A stretch of DNA of 64,000 nt from an uncultured Lentisphaerota bacterium (GTDB lineage: Bacteria > Verrucomicrobiota > Lentisphaeria > Victivallales > GWF2-50-93). The position numbers and the translations under genes are program-made. Shown here piece after piece: positions 10,677-19,513 of this stretch; the first letter of the stretch is position 1; the number at the start of each line of letters is the position of its first letter. Under the pieces are notes generated by a model, which searched no databases, had not been told where the DNA came from, and was given only the letters and a program-made list of their open reading frames with translations. The stretch is taken from NCBI GenBank assembly GCA_903872565.1, contig CAIQLG010000287.1, positions 4,936-68,935 on the forward strand, in the 5' to 3' direction.

Positions 10677-12065
10677 CTATTTCAGCAGGTACATGTTTGC
10701 GATTGAAATTCCACTAAGCATTGCGCCGGTTATCCCTAGGAAGCCCTGATCGGTTCCGCACAGATAAAGACCTTCCGTGTGTGTTCGGCCATTCTTGAAT
10801 TTCAACGGCGAACCATAAACCGCTCCATTGATATGCCCGGTAAACCTTCTAACAGTTTCCGGAGTAAAAATGTCTGAAAATACCAGTCTTTGCCTGAGAT
10901 CAGTTCTTCCGCAGAGTTCTCCGCATTTTTTCAGCAGGATTTCGGAAAGCTCCGCTTTTTTCCCGCGATATGTCTTTTTGTCGTATTTTCTCCAGGAATT
11001 GTGATTCGCGAGAACTGTGAGCCTAAGCATCCTCTCGTTTTTTCTCTCATCGTATCTGAAATTGAACGGACAGCAGAAAACACCGCTCCTGAGACTGTAA
11101 GCGGTGTCCGGCGCACAATAATCAAAATTGTCCGTTTCGTTGAAGAATTTTATCGAATAATCAATTCCTTCAAGATTTGTGCCGGGGTCGATGCAGAAAA
11201 TCGCCTCGATGAATGAAAGCTGGCCCTCAGGCAATTCCGCGAAATTCGCAGGTTTCTCATCGCAGATGTGCATCGTCTCCAGGCTTCCCGCGGATGAAAG
11301 CACATTTGAAGTCTCGAGCATTTCTCCGCCGGAAGTGATGGCAGCCACCGTTTTCCCGCCAGAATTCATAATTCTGCGAATTTCGCAGTTGTACCTAAGT
11401 TCGCCGCCGGATTCCTTGAAACGGTCCTCGAGAAGAGTTATCAGCTGTCTTATCCCCTTCTCTGGACGACAGAAACCTTCCCTGAAAATGCTCTTGTACA
11501 TGATTGCGAACTGCGCAAAATCCATGTCCTTCTCGACTGCACTTCCATAATACATCAGCGGGCAGAAAAGCATTTCGACGAGAAGTTCGTTTTTGATGAA
11601 TCCGGACACGGTTTTTCTGGCGGATACATAAGGGGCGTTGACATCCAGTTCGTTGTAGGACATTATGTGTGAGTCGAGCCTGAGAAAGTTGTCAATCTCG
11701 GAGGGGAACTTGTCCGAGATCGAAGTTTTCAGCATATCGAAGTCGTTTGAGAAGGAGAGGGAAGCGGAGGAAAATTGTATGATGGAATAGTTCTGTTCTC
11801 TCAGGCAGAGTTCATCGTAGGGAATTCTCAGCTGTCTGAGAAGTTTCATCAGCGGCGAGTTCTTTGCACCGCCACGCGGGATAAAGTTGGTCATGGCATG
11901 AAGGCCGGTGTCAATTTCGATTCCATTCCTGTTGTAATACGAGTTGAGACCGCCTCCTCTGCCATGCTTTTCAGCAATGCAGACTTTCTTCCCGAAATGT
12001 GCGAGCCGTATCCCGGCGGCAAGCCCCGACATTCCGGCTCCGACTATGATGCAGTCATATTTCAT
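10677..12065 (-). CDS. FAD/NAD(P)-dependent oxidoreductase, phytoene-desaturase-like
   Basis: N-terminal YDCIIVGAGMSGLAAGIRLA dinucleotide-binding fold, 462 aa. Confidence 0.8.
   Translation of the reverse strand: MKYDCIIVGAGMSGLAAGIRLAHFGKKVCIAEKHGRGGGLNSYYNRNGIEIDTGLHAMTNFIPRGGAKNSPLMKLLRQLRIPYDELCLREQNYSIIQFSSASLSFSNDFDMLKTSISDKFPSEIDNFLRLDSHIMSYNELDVNAPYVSARKTVSGFIKNELLVEMLFCPLMYYGSAVEKDMDFAQFAIMYKSIFREGFCRPEKGIRQLITLLEDRFKESGGELRYNCEIRRIMNSGGKTVAAITSGGEMLETSNVLSSAGSLETMHICDEKPANFAELPEGQLSFIEAIFCIDPGTNLEGIDYSIKFFNETDNFDYCAPDTAYSLRSGVFCCPFNFRYDERKNERMLRLTVLANHNSWRKYDKKTYRGKKAELSEILLKKCGELCGRTDLRQRLVFSDIFTPETVRRFTGHINGAVYGSPLKFKNGRTHTEGLYLCGTDQGFLGITGAMLSGISIANMYLLK
11237..11251. repeat. 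15-bp palindrome family CTGCGAAWTTCGCAG, one mismatch (CCGCGAAATTCGCAG)
   Basis: Read directly. Lies inside the oxidoreductase ORF. Confidence 0.8.
11374..11388. repeat. 15-bp palindrome CTGCGAATTTCGCAG, perfect
   Basis: Read directly. Lies inside the oxidoreductase ORF, 137 bp from the previous copy. Confidence 0.9.
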
Positions 12066-12291
12066 TTATTTACTTTGCCCAAGAGTAATGAAAATATCCG
12101 AATCGAAAAAAGTTGCTTTTAATGCTATTATCCACTTAATAAGTAATACATTGTTTATTTGTAAAATCAAAATTATTTACATTTTTGCCTCGGCATCAGG
12201 CACAATCAGATTCTTTTTTTTAAATTTTAAATTTGTTTTATTTTTTATAGGCAATATATTACCCATCCGAGAAATCAAAATTATTTCTTGT

Positions 12292-12366
12292 TCCGGCGTA
12301 GCTCAGTGGTAGAGTAGGTGGCTGTTAACCACTTGGTCGTAGGTTCGAATCCTACCGCCGGAGCCA
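12292..12366 (+). tRNA. tRNA-Asn (anticodon GTT), CCA encoded
   Basis: Acceptor TCCGGCG/CGCCGGA, D-arm GCTCAGTGGTAGAGT, anticodon loop CTGTTAA, T-arm GTAGGTTCGAATCCTAC, then GCCA. Confidence 0.9.
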
Positions 12367-12375
12367 TTTTTATTA

Positions 12376-12663
12376 ATGACCTATTATCTTTATATTCTAG
12401 AAAATCCAGATGGTCGCACATATGTCGGGCAGAGCAACGATCTTGATCGCAGGCTGATTCAACACAACAATCCCGAATATAGTGGAACACTCTACACGAA
12501 GCGCATCAAAGGACCTTGGAGACTAATTTATTCGGAAGAACATGCGAGCCGGTCGGACTCCATGGCGCGTGAAAAATATTTCAAGACCGGCAAGGGCCGA
12601 GCAATGATTGCTGAAATACAAAACAAGATTTGCGCCGGGAGTTCCAATTTAGGTGGCTGTTAA
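12376..12663 (+). CDS. Small GIY-YIG nuclease-superfamily protein
   Basis: YYLYILENPDGRTYVGQSNDLDRRLIQHN contains the GIY...YVG motif plus conserved R and H/N. 95 aa. The stop codon lies in the anticodon-loop sequence of the partial tRNA copy. Confidence 0.85.
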   Translation: MTYYLYILENPDGRTYVGQSNDLDRRLIQHNNPEYSGTLYTKRIKGPWRLIYSEEHASRSDSMAREKYFKTGKGRAMIAEIQNKICAGSSNLGGC

Positions 12664-12700
12664 TTCGCCTTGGCGAATTCGAATCCTACCGCCGGAGCCA
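12650..12700 (+). pseudogene. Partial duplicate of tRNA-Asn (anticodon arm to 3-prime end)
   Basis: AGGTGGCTGTTAA and TTCGAATCCTACCGCCGGAGCCATTTT are identical to 12315-12328 and 12344-12370. The middle is replaced by the palindrome AATTCGCC-TT-GGCGAATT. Confidence 0.75.
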
Positions 12701-12956
12701 TTTTGTCTGACACGAATTCCCACGAATTTTAATCGCTGAATATCCCCGGGCAAAGAATTTCCGTTTCTCCAAAATATTCATTGCCACTGTAAAAGATGAC
12801 GGCCAGGAATGACCGTCCTACTAAATTGCATAAAATCTTATTCCTCTCTAAGAGTAAATTCGTAAATCGATACATAACCACCAATTCATTAAAATTTAGT
12901 TGTAACGACCTTAATTTAGTCTATATTATGGTCATGATATAAGGGGAAATAATATT

Positions 12957-13250
12957 ATGAAACTGCACGATAAGGTAAAATCAATCAGCTATGTGAAGTC
13001 TCACGCCTCTGAAATACTGAACAAGATAAGCGATACCCATTCCACCTATGTGATAACCCAGAATGGTGAAGCAAAGGCGGTGATACAGGACATAGAAGAA
13101 TATGACAAGCTTCAGGAATCGCTTGCCATGCTTAAACTGATAGCCCAGGGTGCCAATGATATTGAACATGGCAGAATCAGACCGCTCAAAGAGTCATTCT
13201 CAAGTATTCGCAGGAAAATATCCGACAGGAAGTCCGCATGGAAAAAATGA
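12957..13250 (+). CDS. Phd/YefM-family antitoxin
   Basis: SYVKSHASEILNKISDTHSTYVITQNGEAKAVIQDIEEYDKL is a typical Phd/YefM fold sequence. ATGA overlap with the next ORF. Confidence 0.8.
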   Translation: MKLHDKVKSISYVKSHASEILNKISDTHSTYVITQNGEAKAVIQDIEEYDKLQESLAMLKLIAQGANDIEHGRIRPLKESFSSIRRKISDRKSAWKK

Positions 13251-13579
13251 GATATGAGATATTTGTCTCCGAAGAGGCAGAGAAGGATATTATAGATATT
13301 TGGTCGCACATAGCCTTGAACGATTGTCTCGAAAACGCTGACTACGTTCTCAATGGCATTGAAAAAGTAATTTCATCTCTCGAGACGATGCCACGGAGAG
13401 GGCATCTTCCGCCGGAACTTGAGAGGATATCAGTCTTCAACTACCTCGAAGTCCATTACAAGCCATACCGCATCATCTACCAGATTTGCGGTACTTCTAT
13501 TAATATTTACTGCGTAATGGACGGCAGAAGGGATGTCCAGAGTGTGTTGTGCAGGAGACTTCTGAAAATAGAATATTAA
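13247..13579 (+). CDS. ParE/RelE-family toxin
   Basis: About 110 aa. The EAEKDI...IW..I N-terminus and the YRIIY...I.I..V.DGRRD C-terminus are typical of ParE. I prefer the start at the ATGA overlap at 13247; the track start is 13238. Confidence 0.75.
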   Translation: MRYEIFVSEEAEKDIIDIWSHIALNDCLENADYVLNGIEKVISSLETMPRRGHLPPELERISVFNYLEVHYKPYRIIYQICGTSINIYCVMDGRRDVQSVLCRRLLKIEY

Positions 13580-13799
13580 ATATGCCAATATTTAGCTTAA
13601 ATCCAAAATAATATGCCATTATTTCCGTTTTAAATGCTATAATTATTAATTTCTACATCATAAATATCTGTAATTCAACTACTTCACTCAACCCGGGGTG
13701 ATATGTGGGCATTTGGAATTAACGCATTTTATGCTATAGCCTATTTTTTCTTTAAACTCTTTCCATAAAGTTTATAACTAAAACAAACCAAATCAGAGT

Positions 13800-13828
13800 T
13801 TGACATTCTATTGAATAGAATGTATTTT
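13800..13828 (+). promoter_or_regulatory. Sigma70-like promoter with a 19-bp palindrome in the spacer
   Basis: TTGACA (13800-13805), N17, TATTTT (13823-13828). CATTCTATT-G-AATAGAATG at 13804-22 is a perfect 9-bp dyad. The site is 45 nt upstream of the methyltransferase ATG. Confidence 0.45.
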
Positions 13829-13872
13829 TAAACAAAATTAGAAACGTACAAGAAATAATTCAAACAAAAGCC

Positions 13873-15084
13873 ATGAAGAAACTTCATAACAGCAATAAAA
13901 TCAAGGCAATATCTAATTGTTTGTTTGACAATTCTGATGGGAAAGTTGGGTCATTATTGTGGTTGCAACGGACAAAAAAACCTTTGGCAATCAATTCAAA
14001 TGAAAAAGTAAGCATTGTAGACCTTTTTTGCGGGTGCGGCGGCTTTTCACTGGGCGTTGTAGAGGCTGCAGTTGCAAGAAACTTATCCCCAGAAATAAAG
14101 CTTGCCATAGATTCAGATTCGGAGGCACTCAAGGTTTACGCTAAAAATTTTAAAGATTATGGTACAAACTTCATTGAAGATGATATTTCCAATCAATTTC
14201 CTGGCAAACTTGGTGCTGCTATGCATCATGTTGAAAAAAGACATTCGAAGAATCTTGGAAATATTGACTTTTTGATTGCAGGCCCACCGTGTCAGGGCCA
14301 CTCAGACTTGAATAATAGGACCAGGAGAAATGACCCTAGAAACAAACTTTATCTCAAGGTTGTTAGGGCAATTGAAGTGTTGAATCCTAAAATTGCCATA
14401 ATAGAGAATGTCGCTTCTGTTAAGCATGACAAATCAGAAGTGGTTCGAAAAAGCATTGAAAAATTAAAAGCATTGAATTACTCAATTGAGGAGATGAACA
14501 TAAATGCATTGGAATACAGCGTTGCTCAAAACAGGAAAAGACATCTTCTAATAGCCCACAAAGTAAAATTGCCATTCACAATAAATGCTTTCATTGAAGG
14601 CCTTGATTGGGAACCTTTAGCCTTAAAGGACGTAATTAAAGATATCATAGAAAAGCCAGAACAGTCTTCAGAAATGTTTGAAAAACCATCAAAAACAAAT
14701 GCTGAAAATATAGATAGAATATCCTATCTATTCAAGAACAAGCTATTCAATTTGCCAAATGATAAAAGGCCTCCTTGCCATCAAGCAAATCAGCATTCAT
14801 ACTTATCCATGTACGGTCGTTTAAAGTGGAACTTGCCTTCCCAAACAATTACTACAGGATTTGGGTCTATTGGTCAAGGTAGATATATTCATCCTTCAAA
14901 AAAAAGGGTAATCACCCCACATGAAGCAGCTAGAATTCAAGGCTTCCCTGATTATTTCAATTTTTCAATTGTCAAAAAGAGAATTACCTTGCAAACTATT
15001 ATTGGAAATGCAGTTCCCCCTCCTATCGGTGCTGTCTTTTCCTCATTCTTAATGGATTTTATTGGAAAGGAACATCATGTTTAA
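13873..15084 (+). CDS. DNA (cytosine-5)-methyltransferase
   Basis: Motif I DLFCGCGGFSLG, IV GPPCQGHS, VI ENV, VIII QNRKR, X GNAVPPP. Confidence 0.9.
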   Translation: MKKLHNSNKIKAISNCLFDNSDGKVGSLLWLQRTKKPLAINSNEKVSIVDLFCGCGGFSLGVVEAAVARNLSPEIKLAIDSDSEALKVYAKNFKDYGTNFIEDDISNQFPGKLGAAMHHVEKRHSKNLGNIDFLIAGPPCQGHSDLNNRTRRNDPRNKLYLKVVRAIEVLNPKIAIIENVASVKHDKSEVVRKSIEKLKALNYSIEEMNINALEYSVAQNRKRHLLIAHKVKLPFTINAFIEGLDWEPLALKDVIKDIIEKPEQSSEMFEKPSKTNAENIDRISYLFKNKLFNLPNDKRPPCHQANQHSYLSMYGRLKWNLPSQTITTGFGSIGQGRYIHPSKKRVITPHEAARIQGFPDYFNFSIVKKRITLQTIIGNAVPPPIGAVFSSFLMDFIGKEHHV

Positions 15085-16117
15085 TCAAGAGAGAATTAAT
15101 GCGGCTGAAAAGCAAATTGAAGAAGAAAAAAAAATCGTTGATTATGACACCAAAGAGTATCCAGTTGAAGTCATTGTGGCCAAATATGTCACAAAAATGG
15201 AAGATGATGATAATGAATTATTTATTCCTGATTATCAGAGGGATTTTGTTTGGTCAGAAAAGCGACAATCTAAATTTATTGAGTCTGTAATATTAGGCTT
15301 GCCAATTCCATACGTTTTTGTAGCAGATAACGAAGGACGAATTGAAGTTGTTGATGGTTCTCAAAGGATCCGAACGCTAGTCGCTTTTGTTCGTGGCCAG
15401 CTTATATTGACTGACTTAAAGAAGCTTACAGAGCTAAACGATTTCAAATTTAGTGATCTTTCAGAAAAAGAGCGTCGCAGGTTTAACCGCAAAACAATTA
15501 GGATGATAGAACTTACTGAAAACGCAAACGAGGATGTTAGGCGAGACATTTTTGAGAGAATAAATACAGGTAGCGATGAGCTAAGCGAAATGGAAAAAAG
15601 AAAGGGTATTTTAGCTGGAAGCTTCTATAAGGTTGTCTCTGATTGTTCTAACAATCCAATGTTCAAGAAACTATGCCCAATAAGTGATAAAAAAATCAAA
15701 CGTGAAGAAGGACCTGAAATGGTCCTGCGATTCTTTGCGTATGCCTATAATTATGAGTCGTTTGAGCATTCAGTTGTTGACTTTTTAACTGATTTTATGA
15801 CAGAAATGAACGAGAAAACTGATTTTGCTCCATATATCAATGATTTTGAAACCATGCTTACATTTGCAGAAAGATTGCTGAAAAATGGCTTTCGACGAAC
15901 AGCAAGTGCCAGCACGACGCCACGAGTTCGGTTTGAGACGCTTTCAGTAGGAATTCATTTGGCTTTAAAGCAGAATCCAGAACTTACCTTGCCAAATGAT
16001 TTGACTTGGTTAGATTCAGATGAGATGGCAGAATTTACACGTTCAGATGCTAGCAATTCAAAACCAAAAGTGAAGGCAAGAATTGAATTTGTAAGAGATA
16101 AATTGTTGGGAGGATAA
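15077..16117 (+). CDS. DUF262 (ParB-like / GmrSD N-terminal type) domain protein without a recognisable DUF1524 nuclease half
   Basis: IPDYQRDFVW and VDGSQRIRT signatures. The ATG at 15077 overlaps the methyltransferase stop by 8 nt. Confidence 0.75.
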   Translation: MFNQERINAAEKQIEEEKKIVDYDTKEYPVEVIVAKYVTKMEDDDNELFIPDYQRDFVWSEKRQSKFIESVILGLPIPYVFVADNEGRIEVVDGSQRIRTLVAFVRGQLILTDLKKLTELNDFKFSDLSEKERRRFNRKTIRMIELTENANEDVRRDIFERINTGSDELSEMEKRKGILAGSFYKVVSDCSNNPMFKKLCPISDKKIKREEGPEMVLRFFAYAYNYESFEHSVVDFLTDFMTEMNEKTDFAPYINDFETMLTFAERLLKNGFRRTASASTTPRVRFETLSVGIHLALKQNPELTLPNDLTWLDSDEMAEFTRSDASNSKPKVKARIEFVRDKLLGG

Positions 16118-16120
16118 AAG

Positions 16121-16786
16121 ATGAAAAACGTTTTGGCAGATTATGAGAATAGGAAGAATGAGATTGGCGTATATATTGAGTTCATGAAACTAATTGAAAA
16201 TGATTCTGAGCTTGAGCCAATTATAAAAATTAAATGTGCTGATTCAAATAAGCTCAAGAAGATATTGAAGGCAAACACCTATTTGCTAATGTACAATATG
16301 GTGGAATCATCAATAAGAAATGCAATTCAAGCAATATACGACCATTTTAAAAGGAATATGGTTGAATTTGACTCACTGCATAATGAAATTCAAGTGCTAA
16401 TATTAAAAAATGTTAAGAAGACAAACCCCTCTGACTTTCAAAAAAAGCTAAATGCAATTGCTAAGGATATTGTTCTTGAATCTTTTAACCCTGACAATCT
16501 TACCTCTGGGAATATTGATGCCAGAAAAATTAAGGAGATTTCTAAAGAATATGGCTTTTCATGTAAGACGGATTACAAAACATGCAAAGATGGTGCGAAG
16601 TTAATAGAGATTAAGAATAAAAGGAACGATTTGGCTCATGGAATCATATCCTTTGCTGATTGCGGAAAAGACATAGTTACTTCAGATGTTAACACTGCTT
16701 TCGATGAATGCTCTTCATATTTATCTGCTATTTTAACAAATGTTGAAAAATATCTGAATAATAATGAATATTTAAAAACTGCTTGA
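16121..16786 (+). CDS. Putative HEPN-domain protein (R-x4-H)
   Basis: NKRNDLAHG near the C terminus and helical-looking sequence. Starts 3 nt after the DUF262 stop. Confidence 0.55.
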   Translation: MKNVLADYENRKNEIGVYIEFMKLIENDSELEPIIKIKCADSNKLKKILKANTYLLMYNMVESSIRNAIQAIYDHFKRNMVEFDSLHNEIQVLILKNVKKTNPSDFQKKLNAIAKDIVLESFNPDNLTSGNIDARKIKEISKEYGFSCKTDYKTCKDGAKLIEIKNKRNDLAHGIISFADCGKDIVTSDVNTAFDECSSYLSAILTNVEKYLNNNEYLKTA

Positions 16787-17058
16787 ACACCGTTATATGT
16801 GCAACTCAGTGGTGATCTAACTAACGGAATCACAGTTAGTTATGGCTCAGGAATGGGCTGATTAAACACCTTAAAACGGAATAAAGGCCATAATTTTTTG
16901 TGCCTATAAATTATTGCATGGATGGGTACGTTCTTTAATAGTTCTTTTTAAAGTTAAAAAAACGTTTTTGTTAAAAAATCTTGATTTTTTAGATTTTCAA
17001 TTGTATTTTTCCACACAGAAGACAAAGAGGAATTTCAAATATTAACTGTTCGGCTAAA

Positions 17059-17709
17059 ATGATAAAAAAACAACCATTTGATCGTCAAAAGCATATCTAC
17101 CGGAATGATGCTTTTGTTGAACTTGTGAAGGATGCAGTACGTTTCTTCAACGGGACACCCGTTCTCACTCTACCACCACCGAAATATTTTTTGGGAACAG
17201 GTGTCTATGCTCTCTACTACACCGGCACAAATCCACTCTATGCGAAATACCGTGATATAAATAGATTATCATACAGAACTGCTATTTATGTTGGTAAAGC
17301 CGTACCAAAAGGTTGGCGGCAAGCACGGTCAACCGATAACCCATTAAATCAGTCCCGAGAACTCTGCAATCGGTTGCGAGAACATAGCCGAAGCATCATG
17401 ACTACTTCCGACTTATCAATCAAAGATTTTATGTGTCGCTTCGTGATTTTTGAAGATGCCGATTCAGATATGATTGGAACAATCGAAGCTGCGTTGATAA
17501 GATTGCATACACCATTGTGGAATACCACAGTCGATGGTTTTGATAATCACGATCCCGGCAGCGGTCGTTATGAACAAGCCAGGTCTGACTGGGATGTTCT
17601 CCATCCGGGAAGACAATGGGCATTAAAATGTAATGGTGCTCCAAGAGAAAAATCAGCCATCCTTGCGGACATAATCAACCACTTAAATAGACTTATGGTG
17701 ACCCAGTGA
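17059..17709 (+). CDS. Eco29kI-family (GIY-YIG) type II restriction endonuclease
   Basis: GVYALYYTG ... IYVGKAVPKGWRQ ... LREH ... PLWNT. Strongly resembles my recollection of R.Eco29kI over the whole 216 aa. Confidence 0.75.
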   Translation: MIKKQPFDRQKHIYRNDAFVELVKDAVRFFNGTPVLTLPPPKYFLGTGVYALYYTGTNPLYAKYRDINRLSYRTAIYVGKAVPKGWRQARSTDNPLNQSRELCNRLREHSRSIMTTSDLSIKDFMCRFVIFEDADSDMIGTIEAALIRLHTPLWNTTVDGFDNHDPGSGRYEQARSDWDVLHPGRQWALKCNGAPREKSAILADIINHLNRLMVTQ

Positions 17710-19019
17710 AGTCCTTAGAACTTTTTTCAGGGGCAGGTGGATTGGCTAAGGGTCTCGAACTTGCAGGTTTTGAACACAGTGCATTTGTGGAATTCAACAA
17801 GTATGCATGCGCTTCCCTACGACGAAATTTCGACCCTAATAAAGTGTTTGAAGGAGACATTCGAGATTTTGACTTTCATAATCTTTCAGGCATTGATGTC
17901 GTTGCTGGCGGCCCACCGTGCCAGCCTTTTTCCATGGGTGGAAAACATGGAGCAAACAATGATAACCGCGATATGTTTCCTTATGCAATCCGAGCGATTG
18001 AAACGCTCATGCCAAAAGCATTCTTATTTGAGAATGTGAAGGGATTATTGAGGGATTCGTTCTCGGAATATTTCCAGTATATAATTCTTCGCTTAACTTT
18101 TCCCGATGCACATGCGGGGTTGAAGTCTACATGGCGTGAACATCTCGTTTCCTTGAAGAATATAAACTACGACCATTATGAAGGAATAAAGTATCGTGTA
18201 ACGAAAACCTTGATAAATGCAGCAGATTACGGAATACCACAATGCCGTGAACGTGTAGTTATTGTCGGTATTCGTTCGGATATTGACGCTACTTGGCAGT
18301 TCCCAGATGCTACACACAGCGAAGAGAGACTATTGTGGGATAAATTCGTCACGGGTTCTTATTGGGATAATCACGAAGTTGCAAAAGTTCAACGTGAAGC
18401 ATGCCCCACAACCTTGCTGCCGAGGATAAACGACTTGCGCAACACATTTTGCTTCTTCAAGCCGGAGCTAGAGCCATGGCACACTGTTCGCGATGCGTTA
18501 AAGAATATTCCAGATCCTAGAACTAAGCATGGAATTCCAGACCACATCTTTCGTGATGGAGCACGAACATACGCCGGACACACGGGGAGCGATCTTGATT
18601 CGCCCGCCAAAACAGTCAAGGCCGGTGGACATGGCGTTCCAGGTGGTGAGAATATGATGAGATTTCGTGATGGCACAGTGCGTTACTTCACCATTTACGA
18701 AGCGAAGATAATCCAAACATTTCCAAATAATTTTGTGATAACAGGTTCGTGGGGGGAAGCCCTTCGGCAAATCGGCAATGCTGTACCTGTTTTATTAGGG
18801 AAACAGATAGGCCGCAAATTGTTCAATAGTATCCGTTCTGAATATACCAGTGTGAATTGGCCACAACTCGAAAAAACTATGCAGGCCACTTGTATTCAGG
18901 AAATATCAACTCCCTATTGTATGCACAATTTGCGGCGCAAATCTTCTGCTAACAAGCTCAATACACATCATAAGCCGAAAAAGAAGGTCGGAAGTAAATC
19001 CCAATTTACGAAATGCTAG
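17706..19019 (+). CDS. DNA (cytosine-5)-methyltransferase, cognate of the Eco29kI-like nuclease
   Basis: FSGAGGLAKG, GGPPCQPFS, ENVKGL, QCRERV, GNAVPV. GTG start in a GTGA overlap with the nuclease stop. Confidence 0.9.
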   Translation: MKSLELFSGAGGLAKGLELAGFEHSAFVEFNKYACASLRRNFDPNKVFEGDIRDFDFHNLSGIDVVAGGPPCQPFSMGGKHGANNDNRDMFPYAIRAIETLMPKAFLFENVKGLLRDSFSEYFQYIILRLTFPDAHAGLKSTWREHLVSLKNINYDHYEGIKYRVTKTLINAADYGIPQCRERVVIVGIRSDIDATWQFPDATHSEERLLWDKFVTGSYWDNHEVAKVQREACPTTLLPRINDLRNTFCFFKPELEPWHTVRDALKNIPDPRTKHGIPDHIFRDGARTYAGHTGSDLDSPAKTVKAGGHGVPGGENMMRFRDGTVRYFTIYEAKIIQTFPNNFVITGSWGEALRQIGNAVPVLLGKQIGRKLFNSIRSEYTSVNWPQLEKTMQATCIQEISTPYCMHNLRRKSSANKLNTHHKPKKKVGSKSQFTKC

Positions 19020-19213
19020 AAATATTTTGACAGAATATAATTTACGTCCAACTATCGTTTTTTATGGACTTAACGCTAAACATCGGATATTCCATTCACC
19101 CCGTGAGCCTTGAATTCTCTCAAATGTTTTTTCATGATATTTGAAGATTTTGCCTTGAAAATGCAACCTGTGGGGTTACAAAATTGATTATCATTGAAAA
19201 GCAGGAATATACT

Positions 19214-19513
19214 ATGAAAAACATAAGAAAACCGAAACATCCTGGAATGATACTGAATGAACTATATCTTGATGAACTTGGCATTACTCTGACAGATTTC
19301 GCCAATTACATTGGCGTGTCCAGAAAAGCCATATCCGCAATTGTAAATGGACGCAAGCGGGTAACACCCGAAATGGCGCTCCGTTTTGCAAAAGCCTTCA
19401 ACACGACTCCGGAACTTTGGTTGAACCTACAGCAAAATTATGATCTTTGGATGGCCAAGCAAGCCATAGGGGATAAAATATCGTCAATACATCCGCTTTG
19501 CGCCGTGGCGTGA
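19214..19513 (+). CDS. higA: HigA-family antitoxin (XRE HTH)
   Basis: HPGMILNELYLDELGITLTDFANYIGVSRKAISAIVNGRKRVTPEMALRFAKAF. I prefer the ATG at 19214, which has an AGGA upstream. Confidence 0.8.
   Translation: MKNIRKPKHPGMILNELYLDELGITLTDFANYIGVSRKAISAIVNGRKRVTPEMALRFAKAFNTTPELWLNLQQNYDLWMAKQAIGDKISSIHPLCAVA

Follow-up and report, generated by a model that had tools for sequence, protein, structure and literature searches.

The window analysed here is a stretch of 64,000 nucleotides (nt) from contig CAIQLG010000287.1 of an uncultured Lentisphaerota bacterium. It carries three adjacent open reading frames (ORFs) on the same strand that encode a C5 cytosine DNA methyltransferase (ORF1), a protein with a DUF262 domain (ORF2) and a HEPN protein (ORF3). 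This trio is a conserved three-gene module, not a set of accidental neighbours. We consider the odds evenly balanced that it acts as a restriction-modification (R-M)-like module whose restriction arm is an RNase and not a DNase. If this wiring is right, self-marking by DNA methylation would drive an RNase effector, and three genes would join abortive infection to the logic of R-M. A first-pass annotation, made from the sequence alone, had presented the trio as an undescribed defence system. That claim has to be withdrawn, as the association is in a 2013 paper, the families are named by Pfam, NCBI and RefSeq, and the related system PD-T4-2 has been validated.

The three proteins and their linkage

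The gene layout was as the first-pass annotation had given it: the three ORFs are co-directional, ORF1 and ORF2 overlap by 8 nt (15077-15084) and a gap of 3 nt (16118-16120) separates ORF2 from ORF3. Every motif it had quoted for the three proteins was found in the sequence, and its domain assignments were upheld by Pfam (PF00145, PF03235 and PF18737/PF18735, respectively). The 8-nt overlap suggests translational coupling of ORF1 and ORF2. A mechanical ORF list puts the start of ORF2 at TTG 15062; as homologues begin with MFD or MFN at ATG 15077, we took the latter as the start codon.

ORF1 matches PF00145 at 2e-52 and TIGR00675 at 1.6e-44 in profile searches and contains FCGCGG, GPPCQGHS, ENV, QNRKR and GNAVPPP, which are motifs I, IV (PCQ), VI (ENV), VIII and X, so the catalytic motifs are intact. 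Its best relatives in the PDB are the catalytic domain of DNMT1, M.HaeIII and M.HhaI (E = 1e-14 to 1e-30); with regard to target specificity, the PDB matches showed only generic C5-methyltransferase similarity. Residues 1 to ~45 of ORF1 (13873-14007), which precede motif I, are missing in the closest homologue (L010). This segment may be an N-terminal regulatory extension or may reflect a misplaced start codon.

The sole Pfam match of ORF2 is PF03235 (GmrSD_N/DUF262; 5e-31, residues 45-179), and neither DUF1524 (PF07510) nor any other nuclease family in Pfam matched at E ≤ 0.1. IPDYQRDFVW and VDGSQRIRT are both present, the DGSQR of the latter including D93, Q96 and R97, and QR..W, DGxQR and F...N are invariant in the DUF262 proteins of all 70 complete trios. 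The C-terminal half is conserved too, with R283, R285, E287, the stretch S/T-D-A-S-N-S at 323-328 and R335 invariant. An AlphaFold model of ORF2 (predicted local distance difference test score, pLDDT, 88) consists of a ParB/Srx-like domain followed by an all-helical C-terminal domain, which agrees with the 'ParB-DUF262 + ParBDB' architecture that Li et al. 2025 describe in NsnA, DndB, GmrSD and SspE. Foldseek matched this model to ParB, Noc, PadC, KorB, BrxU (7p9k) and SspE (6jiv) with a probability of ~1 and E = 2e-3 to 2e-2; none of the matches was a nuclease fold. Across 119 homologues, no His is invariant; the residues that are invariant in the family, namely Arg, Ser, Asn and Glu, include no metal-site signature. 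The absence of DUF1524 or another DNase from ORF2, as first proposed, was thus borne out by Pfam, by the model and by residue conservation. The search with ORF2 returned 5039 family matches, and the top 120 were all at least 53% identical.

ORF3 matches PF18737 (HEPN_MAE_28990) at 2.1e-26, with 93.9 bits against a cutoff of 26.8, and fits PF18735 (HEPN_RiboL-PSP) less well, at 4e-10 and 40.4 bits against a cutoff of 28.4. Its model is all-helical (pLDDT 89). The sequence NKRNDLAHG contains the R-x4-H motif (R168-x4-H173) taken initially as the HEPN RNase signature, and conservation agrees: R168 and H173, together with N59, E62 and G130, are invariant in the HEPN proteins of 70/70 trios. An hhalign comparison of the ORF3 family with a single PF18735 HEPN protein (from locus L091) gave no match. 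Close relatives of ORF3 are few (23 matches with at most 53% identity in a word-indexed search); the HEPN family comprises 1353 cluster representatives at E ≤ 1e-10, all of them stand-alone proteins of ~210-260 amino acids.

Scanning one genome per species with the ORF2 alignment yielded at least 577 relatives. The neighbours were searched with custom hidden Markov models in 82 loci, which are the best 80 of these at least 577 relatives plus loci found earlier, and 80 contigs were examined of the 164 in IMG/VR with matches. The HEPN gene lies directly 3' of the DUF262 gene in 81 of the 82 loci, and a C5-methyltransferase gene adjoins the pair in 76; in all six exceptions the contig ends on the expected methylase side. 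The viral contigs gave the same picture (HEPN gene 80/80, methylase 75/80, four of the five exceptions cut off). Recurrence in unrelated genomes, which the first-pass annotation had proposed as a check, was confirmed, as the trio forms a conserved neighbourhood that spans at least 10 phyla. The three proteins have correlated pairwise identities (r = 0.74-0.84), and the exact window proteins were found again on ~10 metagenomic contigs with the same neighbours.

The genes occur in three arrangements. The methylase is upstream and co-directional, as in the window, in 29 loci, mostly from Bacteroidota, Acidobacteriota, Planctomycetota, Verrucomicrobiota and Proteobacteria. In more than 41 loci it lies downstream in convergent orientation, a layout typical of cyanobacteria including Microcystis aeruginosa, and in 3 it is downstream and co-directional. 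The two commoner orders, methylase first in tandem or convergent, echo classical R-M layouts. Junctions are tight: a 4-nt overlap joins the DUF262 and HEPN genes in 38 loci, and in 26 loci the HEPN gene and a convergent methylase share 4 nt at their stops. Decay and rearrangement have also produced variants, among them a locus with the HEPN gene deleted (L060), one with three HEPN-like ORFs in a row (L055) and two with a split DUF262 gene (L084 and L086). In a lambdoid prophage (L166), the fifth exception among the viral contigs, the pair sits between the replication O/P genes and NinG, and a convergent second DUF262-like ORF of 170 residues takes the place of the methylase.

Clustering the methylases of the 70 complete trios at 45% identity defined three clades, of which the main one accounts for 63. 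The clade of ORF1 comprises the window and loci L010, L011 and L051; the third comprises L015, L016 and L021. ORF1 is 56-57% identical to the methylases of L010 and L011 and 26-31% identical to those of the main clade. That the window's methylase belongs to a minority clade, distinct from the methylase of most trios, is new here. Judged by these sequence comparisons, the methylase is exchangeable within the module, with unrelated C5 clades substituting for each other.

Of 5426 complete Escherichia coli genomes, 7 have the trio in a P2-like prophage, between the portal gene Q and the replication gene A, and phage P24B2 has it at the same locus; these copies fall into two sequence variants that are ~75% identical. 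Further copies are on the Klebsiella plasmid NZ_CP069825.1 and in Moraxella prophages. The copy of E. coli 181.1 spans positions 503417-506317 of NZ_CP059907.1. The module is therefore horizontally mobile and located in defence hot spots. It is compact (~3 kb) and widespread. Thanks to its natural copies in P2-like prophages of E. coli and on a Klebsiella plasmid, it could be tested directly in standard hosts.

Proposed mechanism and competing explanations

In an R-M-like module with an RNase arm, the methylase would mark host DNA with 5-methylcytosine (5mC). The DUF262 protein would read the modification state of DNA in a nucleoside triphosphate (NTP)-dependent manner, by analogy to SspE, GmrSD and BrxU; SspE is a precedent for a DUF262 protein that serves a self-modification system. 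If the state of the DNA is wrong, the simplest case being incoming DNA that is unmethylated, the DUF262 protein would release or activate the translationally coupled HEPN partner. The latter would cleave RNA and stop growth, amounting to abortive infection by analogy to PD-T4-2 and PrrC. From the domain content and the precedents we infer the polarity of sensing, a physical DUF262-HEPN complex, RNA as the target and the abortive-infection phenotype. On polarity, Li et al. 2025 suggest non-modified DNA as a possible target of ParB-DUF262 in those cases in which Menshen is accompanied by lone methylases. For copies carried by plasmids and prophages, post-segregational killing would follow from this logic as well. 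The complete scheme, a methylation-gated abortive infection without DNA cleavage in which an exchangeable methylase writes 5mC, a ParB-fold NTPase reads it and a HEPN protein cleaves RNA, is put forward tentatively and with less confidence than its core, the RNase arm.

Several observations weigh against this mechanism. Methylase identity between clades is 19-31%, while the DUF262 proteins stay 50-67% identical; such swapping is awkward if the DUF262 protein has to recognise the sequence that the methylase does. The partners of window-clade methylases (n = 4) share 8 or 9 DUF262 positions that are rare elsewhere, almost all within the C-terminal domain, a weak hint of matched specificity, but the co-variation between methylase clade and DUF262 is itself weak (8 shared positions versus 6 in the best control). 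The lambdoid prophage copy (L166, 4004-6369) has full flanks and no adjacent C5 methylase, the only complete-flank exception found. DUF262-HEPN relatives lacking a methylase also exist in L008, L091 and PD-T4-2, so the pair can be kept in check without one; L008 and L091 are more distant branches, the HEPN protein of L091 matches PF18735 only, and the DUF262 protein of L091 shares 29% identity with ORF2. Two loci, L005 and L012, have a split methylase ORF although their DUF262-HEPN pair is intact, which would count against strict self-toxicity unless it reflects an assembly error, which is possible. For the effector, Foldseek of the ORF3 model against the PDB returned only HepT-type HEPN toxins (E ~1, probability 0.2-0.33) and a profile search of ORF3 against PDB sequences returned no match; as neither structure nor sequence gave a significant hit there, the HEPN assignment is carried by the Pfam profiles and the invariant motif. 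Finally, literature searches found no published experiment on the methylase-linked trio.

Methylase clade swapping and the methylase-less L166 fit the simple model least and leave room for a generic sensor. As unrelated methylases swap while the sensor is conserved, the DUF262 protein may respond generically, to the methylase itself or to the methyl mark, with no fixed sequence required. If true, this would be a new logic of self/non-self discrimination.

The strongest competitor, which we nonetheless consider unlikely, follows the proposal of 2013: ORF2 would be a ParB-like DNase that restricts unmethylated DNA, and the HEPN RNase a PrrC-like back-up that the R-M proteins keep silent and that is freed when a phage disables them. 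Anantharaman et al. 2013 indeed name a 'ParB nuclease' as the partner and suggest that HEPN proteins linked to R-M systems are reversibly inhibited in the manner of PrrC, and the obligate three-gene linkage fits this two-pronged arrangement equally well. What tells against it is the character of ORF2: in GmrSD, BrxU and SspE, DUF262 is the NTPase and sensor and DUF1524 supplies the DNase, but ORF2 has neither DUF1524 nor a recognisable nuclease fold, and its family shows no invariant His and no metal-site signature.

Somewhat less probable again is that the trio is primarily an addiction module, in which loss of the cassette would dilute methylation, the DUF262 protein would sense the host chromosome and the HEPN toxin would arrest the cell, with phage defence secondary. 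The mobility of the module suits this: a plasmid, prophages of P2-like, lambdoid and Moraxella origin and 164 IMG/VR contigs carry copies, the window copy is compositionally foreign, and a toxin-like HEPN protein paired with a protective methylase recalls selfish R-M behaviour. Yet the P2 Q-A locus and the defence-island contexts point to anti-phage selection, and the homologous PD-T4-2 pair protects against phage. Addiction would moreover be a corollary of the R-M-like mechanism and not an alternative to it.

It is very improbable that the methyltransferase acts on RNA, in the manner of Dnmt2, or as an epigenetic regulator, shielding the RNA target of the HEPN protein. The HEPN effector would act on RNA, Dnmt2-type enzymes have the C5 fold, and DNMT2 and tRNA-m5C enzymes were matched weakly in the PDB searches. 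However, these matches (E = 3e-7 to 7e-6) were far behind those to DNA methyltransferases, and the methylases of both clades tested resemble DNA methylases rather than RNA methylases of the Dnmt2 type. In addition, three unrelated DNA-type clades interchange, and the partner belongs to the DNA-binding ParB family. Least credible is the first-pass alternative that a type IV-like, modification-dependent DUF262/HEPN pair merely sits beside an unrelated orphan methylase: the DUF262 enzymes GmrSD and BrxU do target modified cytosines and methylase-less pairs are known (L008, L091 and PD-T4-2), but the census of 82 loci and 80 IMG/VR contigs rejected it, as essentially every complete locus of the subfamily, whether in viral contigs or in one of at least 10 phyla, has a methylase beside it, overlapping junctions are frequent, three gene orders occur, and a 5mC-dependent toxin beside a 5mC writer would be suicidal.

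Locus features and neighbouring genes

Upstream of ORF1, the hexamers and N17 spacer of the sigma-70-like promoter reported initially exist as written. Such sites are, however, no commoner than in shuffled sequence (15 observed in the region versus 13.3 +/- 3.5), and we regard the promoter as a plausible candidate, not as evidence. The palindrome at 13803-13823 was absent 5' of all related loci checked and is therefore a local feature; no regulator gene adjoins it. We found no intrinsic terminator 3' of ORF3. Around the HEPN gene, a search for tandem-repeat RNA resembling type III antitoxins was negative, and the sole match in an Rfam search of the locus was a tRNA.

The trio shares an island with a Phd/ParE pair and an Eco29kI R-M system, beside a tRNA-Asn gene. 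The first-pass statement that no conventional restriction endonuclease (REase) accompanies the methylase is true within the trio, but it passed over the complete Eco29kI-family type II R-M system (17059-19019) that lies 273 nt 3' of ORF3. As this system has a methylase of its own, the island holds two C5 methylases. From the tRNA to ORF3 (12000-17000), the guanine plus cytosine (GC) fraction is 0.32-0.39, against 0.43-0.53 in the flanks, a composition consistent with horizontal acquisition of the trio. A 14-nt segment of the anticodon arm and the 27-nt 3' end of the tRNA-Asn are repeated exactly at 12650-12663 and 12678-12704, so that a partial second tRNA copy flanks the GIY-YIG gene. This gene looks like a small mobile element inserted at the tRNA.

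Table 1. Coordinates of the trio, its candidate control elements, neighbouring genes and copies at the P2-like Q-A locus. Window positions, except for the loci L092, L094 and L095, which have their own numbering.
Feature	Position	Strand	Remarks
ORF1, C5 cytosine DNA methyltransferase	13873-15084	+	403 amino acids; putative modification component
ORF2, DUF262 (ParB/Srx-like NTPase) and helical C-terminal 'ParBDB'-type domain	15077-16117	+	346 amino acids; putative sensor/switch
ORF3, MAE_28990-type HEPN protein, R168-x4-H173	16121-16786	+	221 amino acids; putative RNase effector
Sigma-70-like promoter candidate (TTGACA 13800-13805, N17, TATTTT 13823-13828)	13800-13828	+	5' of ORF1; score 10/12
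Perfect 10-1-10 palindrome ACATTCTATT-G-AATAGAATGT	13803-13823	not applicable	fills promoter spacer; possible operator
tRNA-Asn(GTT)	12292-12366
GIY-YIG ORF, 95 amino acids	12376-12663		follows tRNA-Asn
Phd/YefM antitoxin	12957-13250		directly upstream of trio
ParE toxin	13238-13579		directly upstream of trio
Eco29kI-family REase	17059-17709		PF09517, 1e-68
C5 methylase of Eco29kI-type R-M	17706-19019		4-nt overlap with its REase
HTH_3/HigA-like ORF	19184-19513		no obvious toxin partner
Trio copy at P2-like Q-A variable locus, L092	140-3041
Trio copy at P2-like Q-A variable locus, L094	2501-5401
Trio copy at P2-like Q-A variable locus, L095	2423-5319

Relation to known systems

The first-pass annotation had asked whether the gene content matches a named system, and it does so in part. 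Table 1 of Anantharaman, Makarova, Burroughs, Koonin & Aravind 2013 (Biol Direct 8:15) lists an operon of a MAE_28990-family HEPN protein, a ParB (DUF262) protein and a DNA methylase, with the same three gene families and the same operonic linkage as the window: the HEPN family with its Rx4-6H motif, the ParB-like (DUF262) gene and the DNA methylase gene are all present here. The authors proposed that R-M-linked HEPN RNases are PrrC-like second-line suicide effectors and called the partner a 'ParB nuclease'; their description of this operon is one table line, with no mechanism or experiment. Two Microcystis aeruginosa loci (L053 and L065) carry the trio, and their HEPN proteins give the strongest PF18737 score (1e-41). 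Unlike the cyanobacterial trio, the window has its methylase first and co-directional, and this methylase is 26-31% identical to the cyanobacterial one. The HEPN family is already named, as Pfam PF18737 and as the NCBI 'MAE_28990/MAE_18760 family HEPN-like nuclease', and in E. coli and Klebsiella all three trio genes already have family names in RefSeq. Makarova et al. 2013 had in turn interpreted the fusion of COG1479/DUF262 with HEPN as a probable cell-death module connected with DNA modification. Literature searches for GmrSD_N with HEPN, for DUF262 in P2 hot spots and for the Microcystis neighbour loci found nothing, and Rousset 2022 does not mention the trio.

The closest system with an experiment is PD-T4-2 ('DUF262, HEPN') from E. 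coli ECOR65, which comprises two ORFs in 1.5 kb and protects against T4 both in K-12 and in its native host (Vassallo et al. 2022). The window shares these core two genes in the same order; ORF2 matches PD-T4-2_A over its full length, and ORF3 scores above the gathering threshold of PF18735, to which the HEPN protein of PD-T4-2 is attributed. PD-T4-2 has no methylase, whereas the pair in the window is coupled to one, a linkage that is near-universal in its DUF262 subfamily. The PADLOC models place ORF2 nearest to NsnA (1.7e-58, full-length), ahead of PD-T4-2_A (PDLC04027; 2e-36, profile positions 21-355 of 363), and by this measure ORF2 and PD-T4-2_A are homologous but not close. Neither PD-T4-2_B nor any other defence HEPN model of PADLOC matched ORF3 (E ≤ 0.1) or four other partners, so that the trio is not assignable to any PADLOC system. 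The PD-T4-2_B model looks narrow, because the PF18735 partner in L091 also fails to match it. Defence-system censuses probably miss the trio, as the PADLOC v2 profiles used here do not call it.

In reviews, PD-T4-2, Menshen and Dazbog appear as DUF262 systems that lack DUF1524. In Menshen (NsnABC; Millman 2022; Li et al. 2025), NsnA resembles ORF2 in combining ParB-DUF262 with a helical ParBDB-type C-terminal domain. Menshen then has the NsnB ATPase and the NsnC inPIN-nuclease, in place of which the window has the HEPN gene followed by the Eco29kI REase. As NsnB and NsnC are missing and ORF3 matches no PADLOC model, the locus is neither Menshen nor, by profile, PD-T4-2.

SspE, GmrSD and BrxU share with ORF2 the DUF262 NTPase sensor, the DGxQR motif and a following helical domain. 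They also carry the DUF1524 His-Me DNase, which is absent from the trio; ORF3 is not DUF1524, and the predicted effector is a separate HEPN protein. SspABCD-SspE resembles the trio in genetically tying a DUF262 protein to a self-modification module, but its modification is phosphorothioation, whereas that predicted for the trio is 5mC made by a single methylase. GmrSD and BrxU, unlike the trio, have no cognate modification gene. Classical type II R-M systems have a cognate endonuclease, and neither ORF2 nor ORF3 showed a DNase fold. PrrC-EcoprrI and other R-M-linked HEPN anticodon nucleases place a HEPN RNase inside a DNA modification system, with abortive infection the likely outcome, as for the trio. 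PrrC, however, has its own ABC-ATPase domain and accompanies a complete type Ic R-M system with a DNase subunit, whereas the trio has no DNase and a ParB-fold NTPase. Overall, the trio is of a bioinformatically known, PD-T4-2-related kind without published experimental characterisation, and the window holds a member of it with a methylase of a minority clade.

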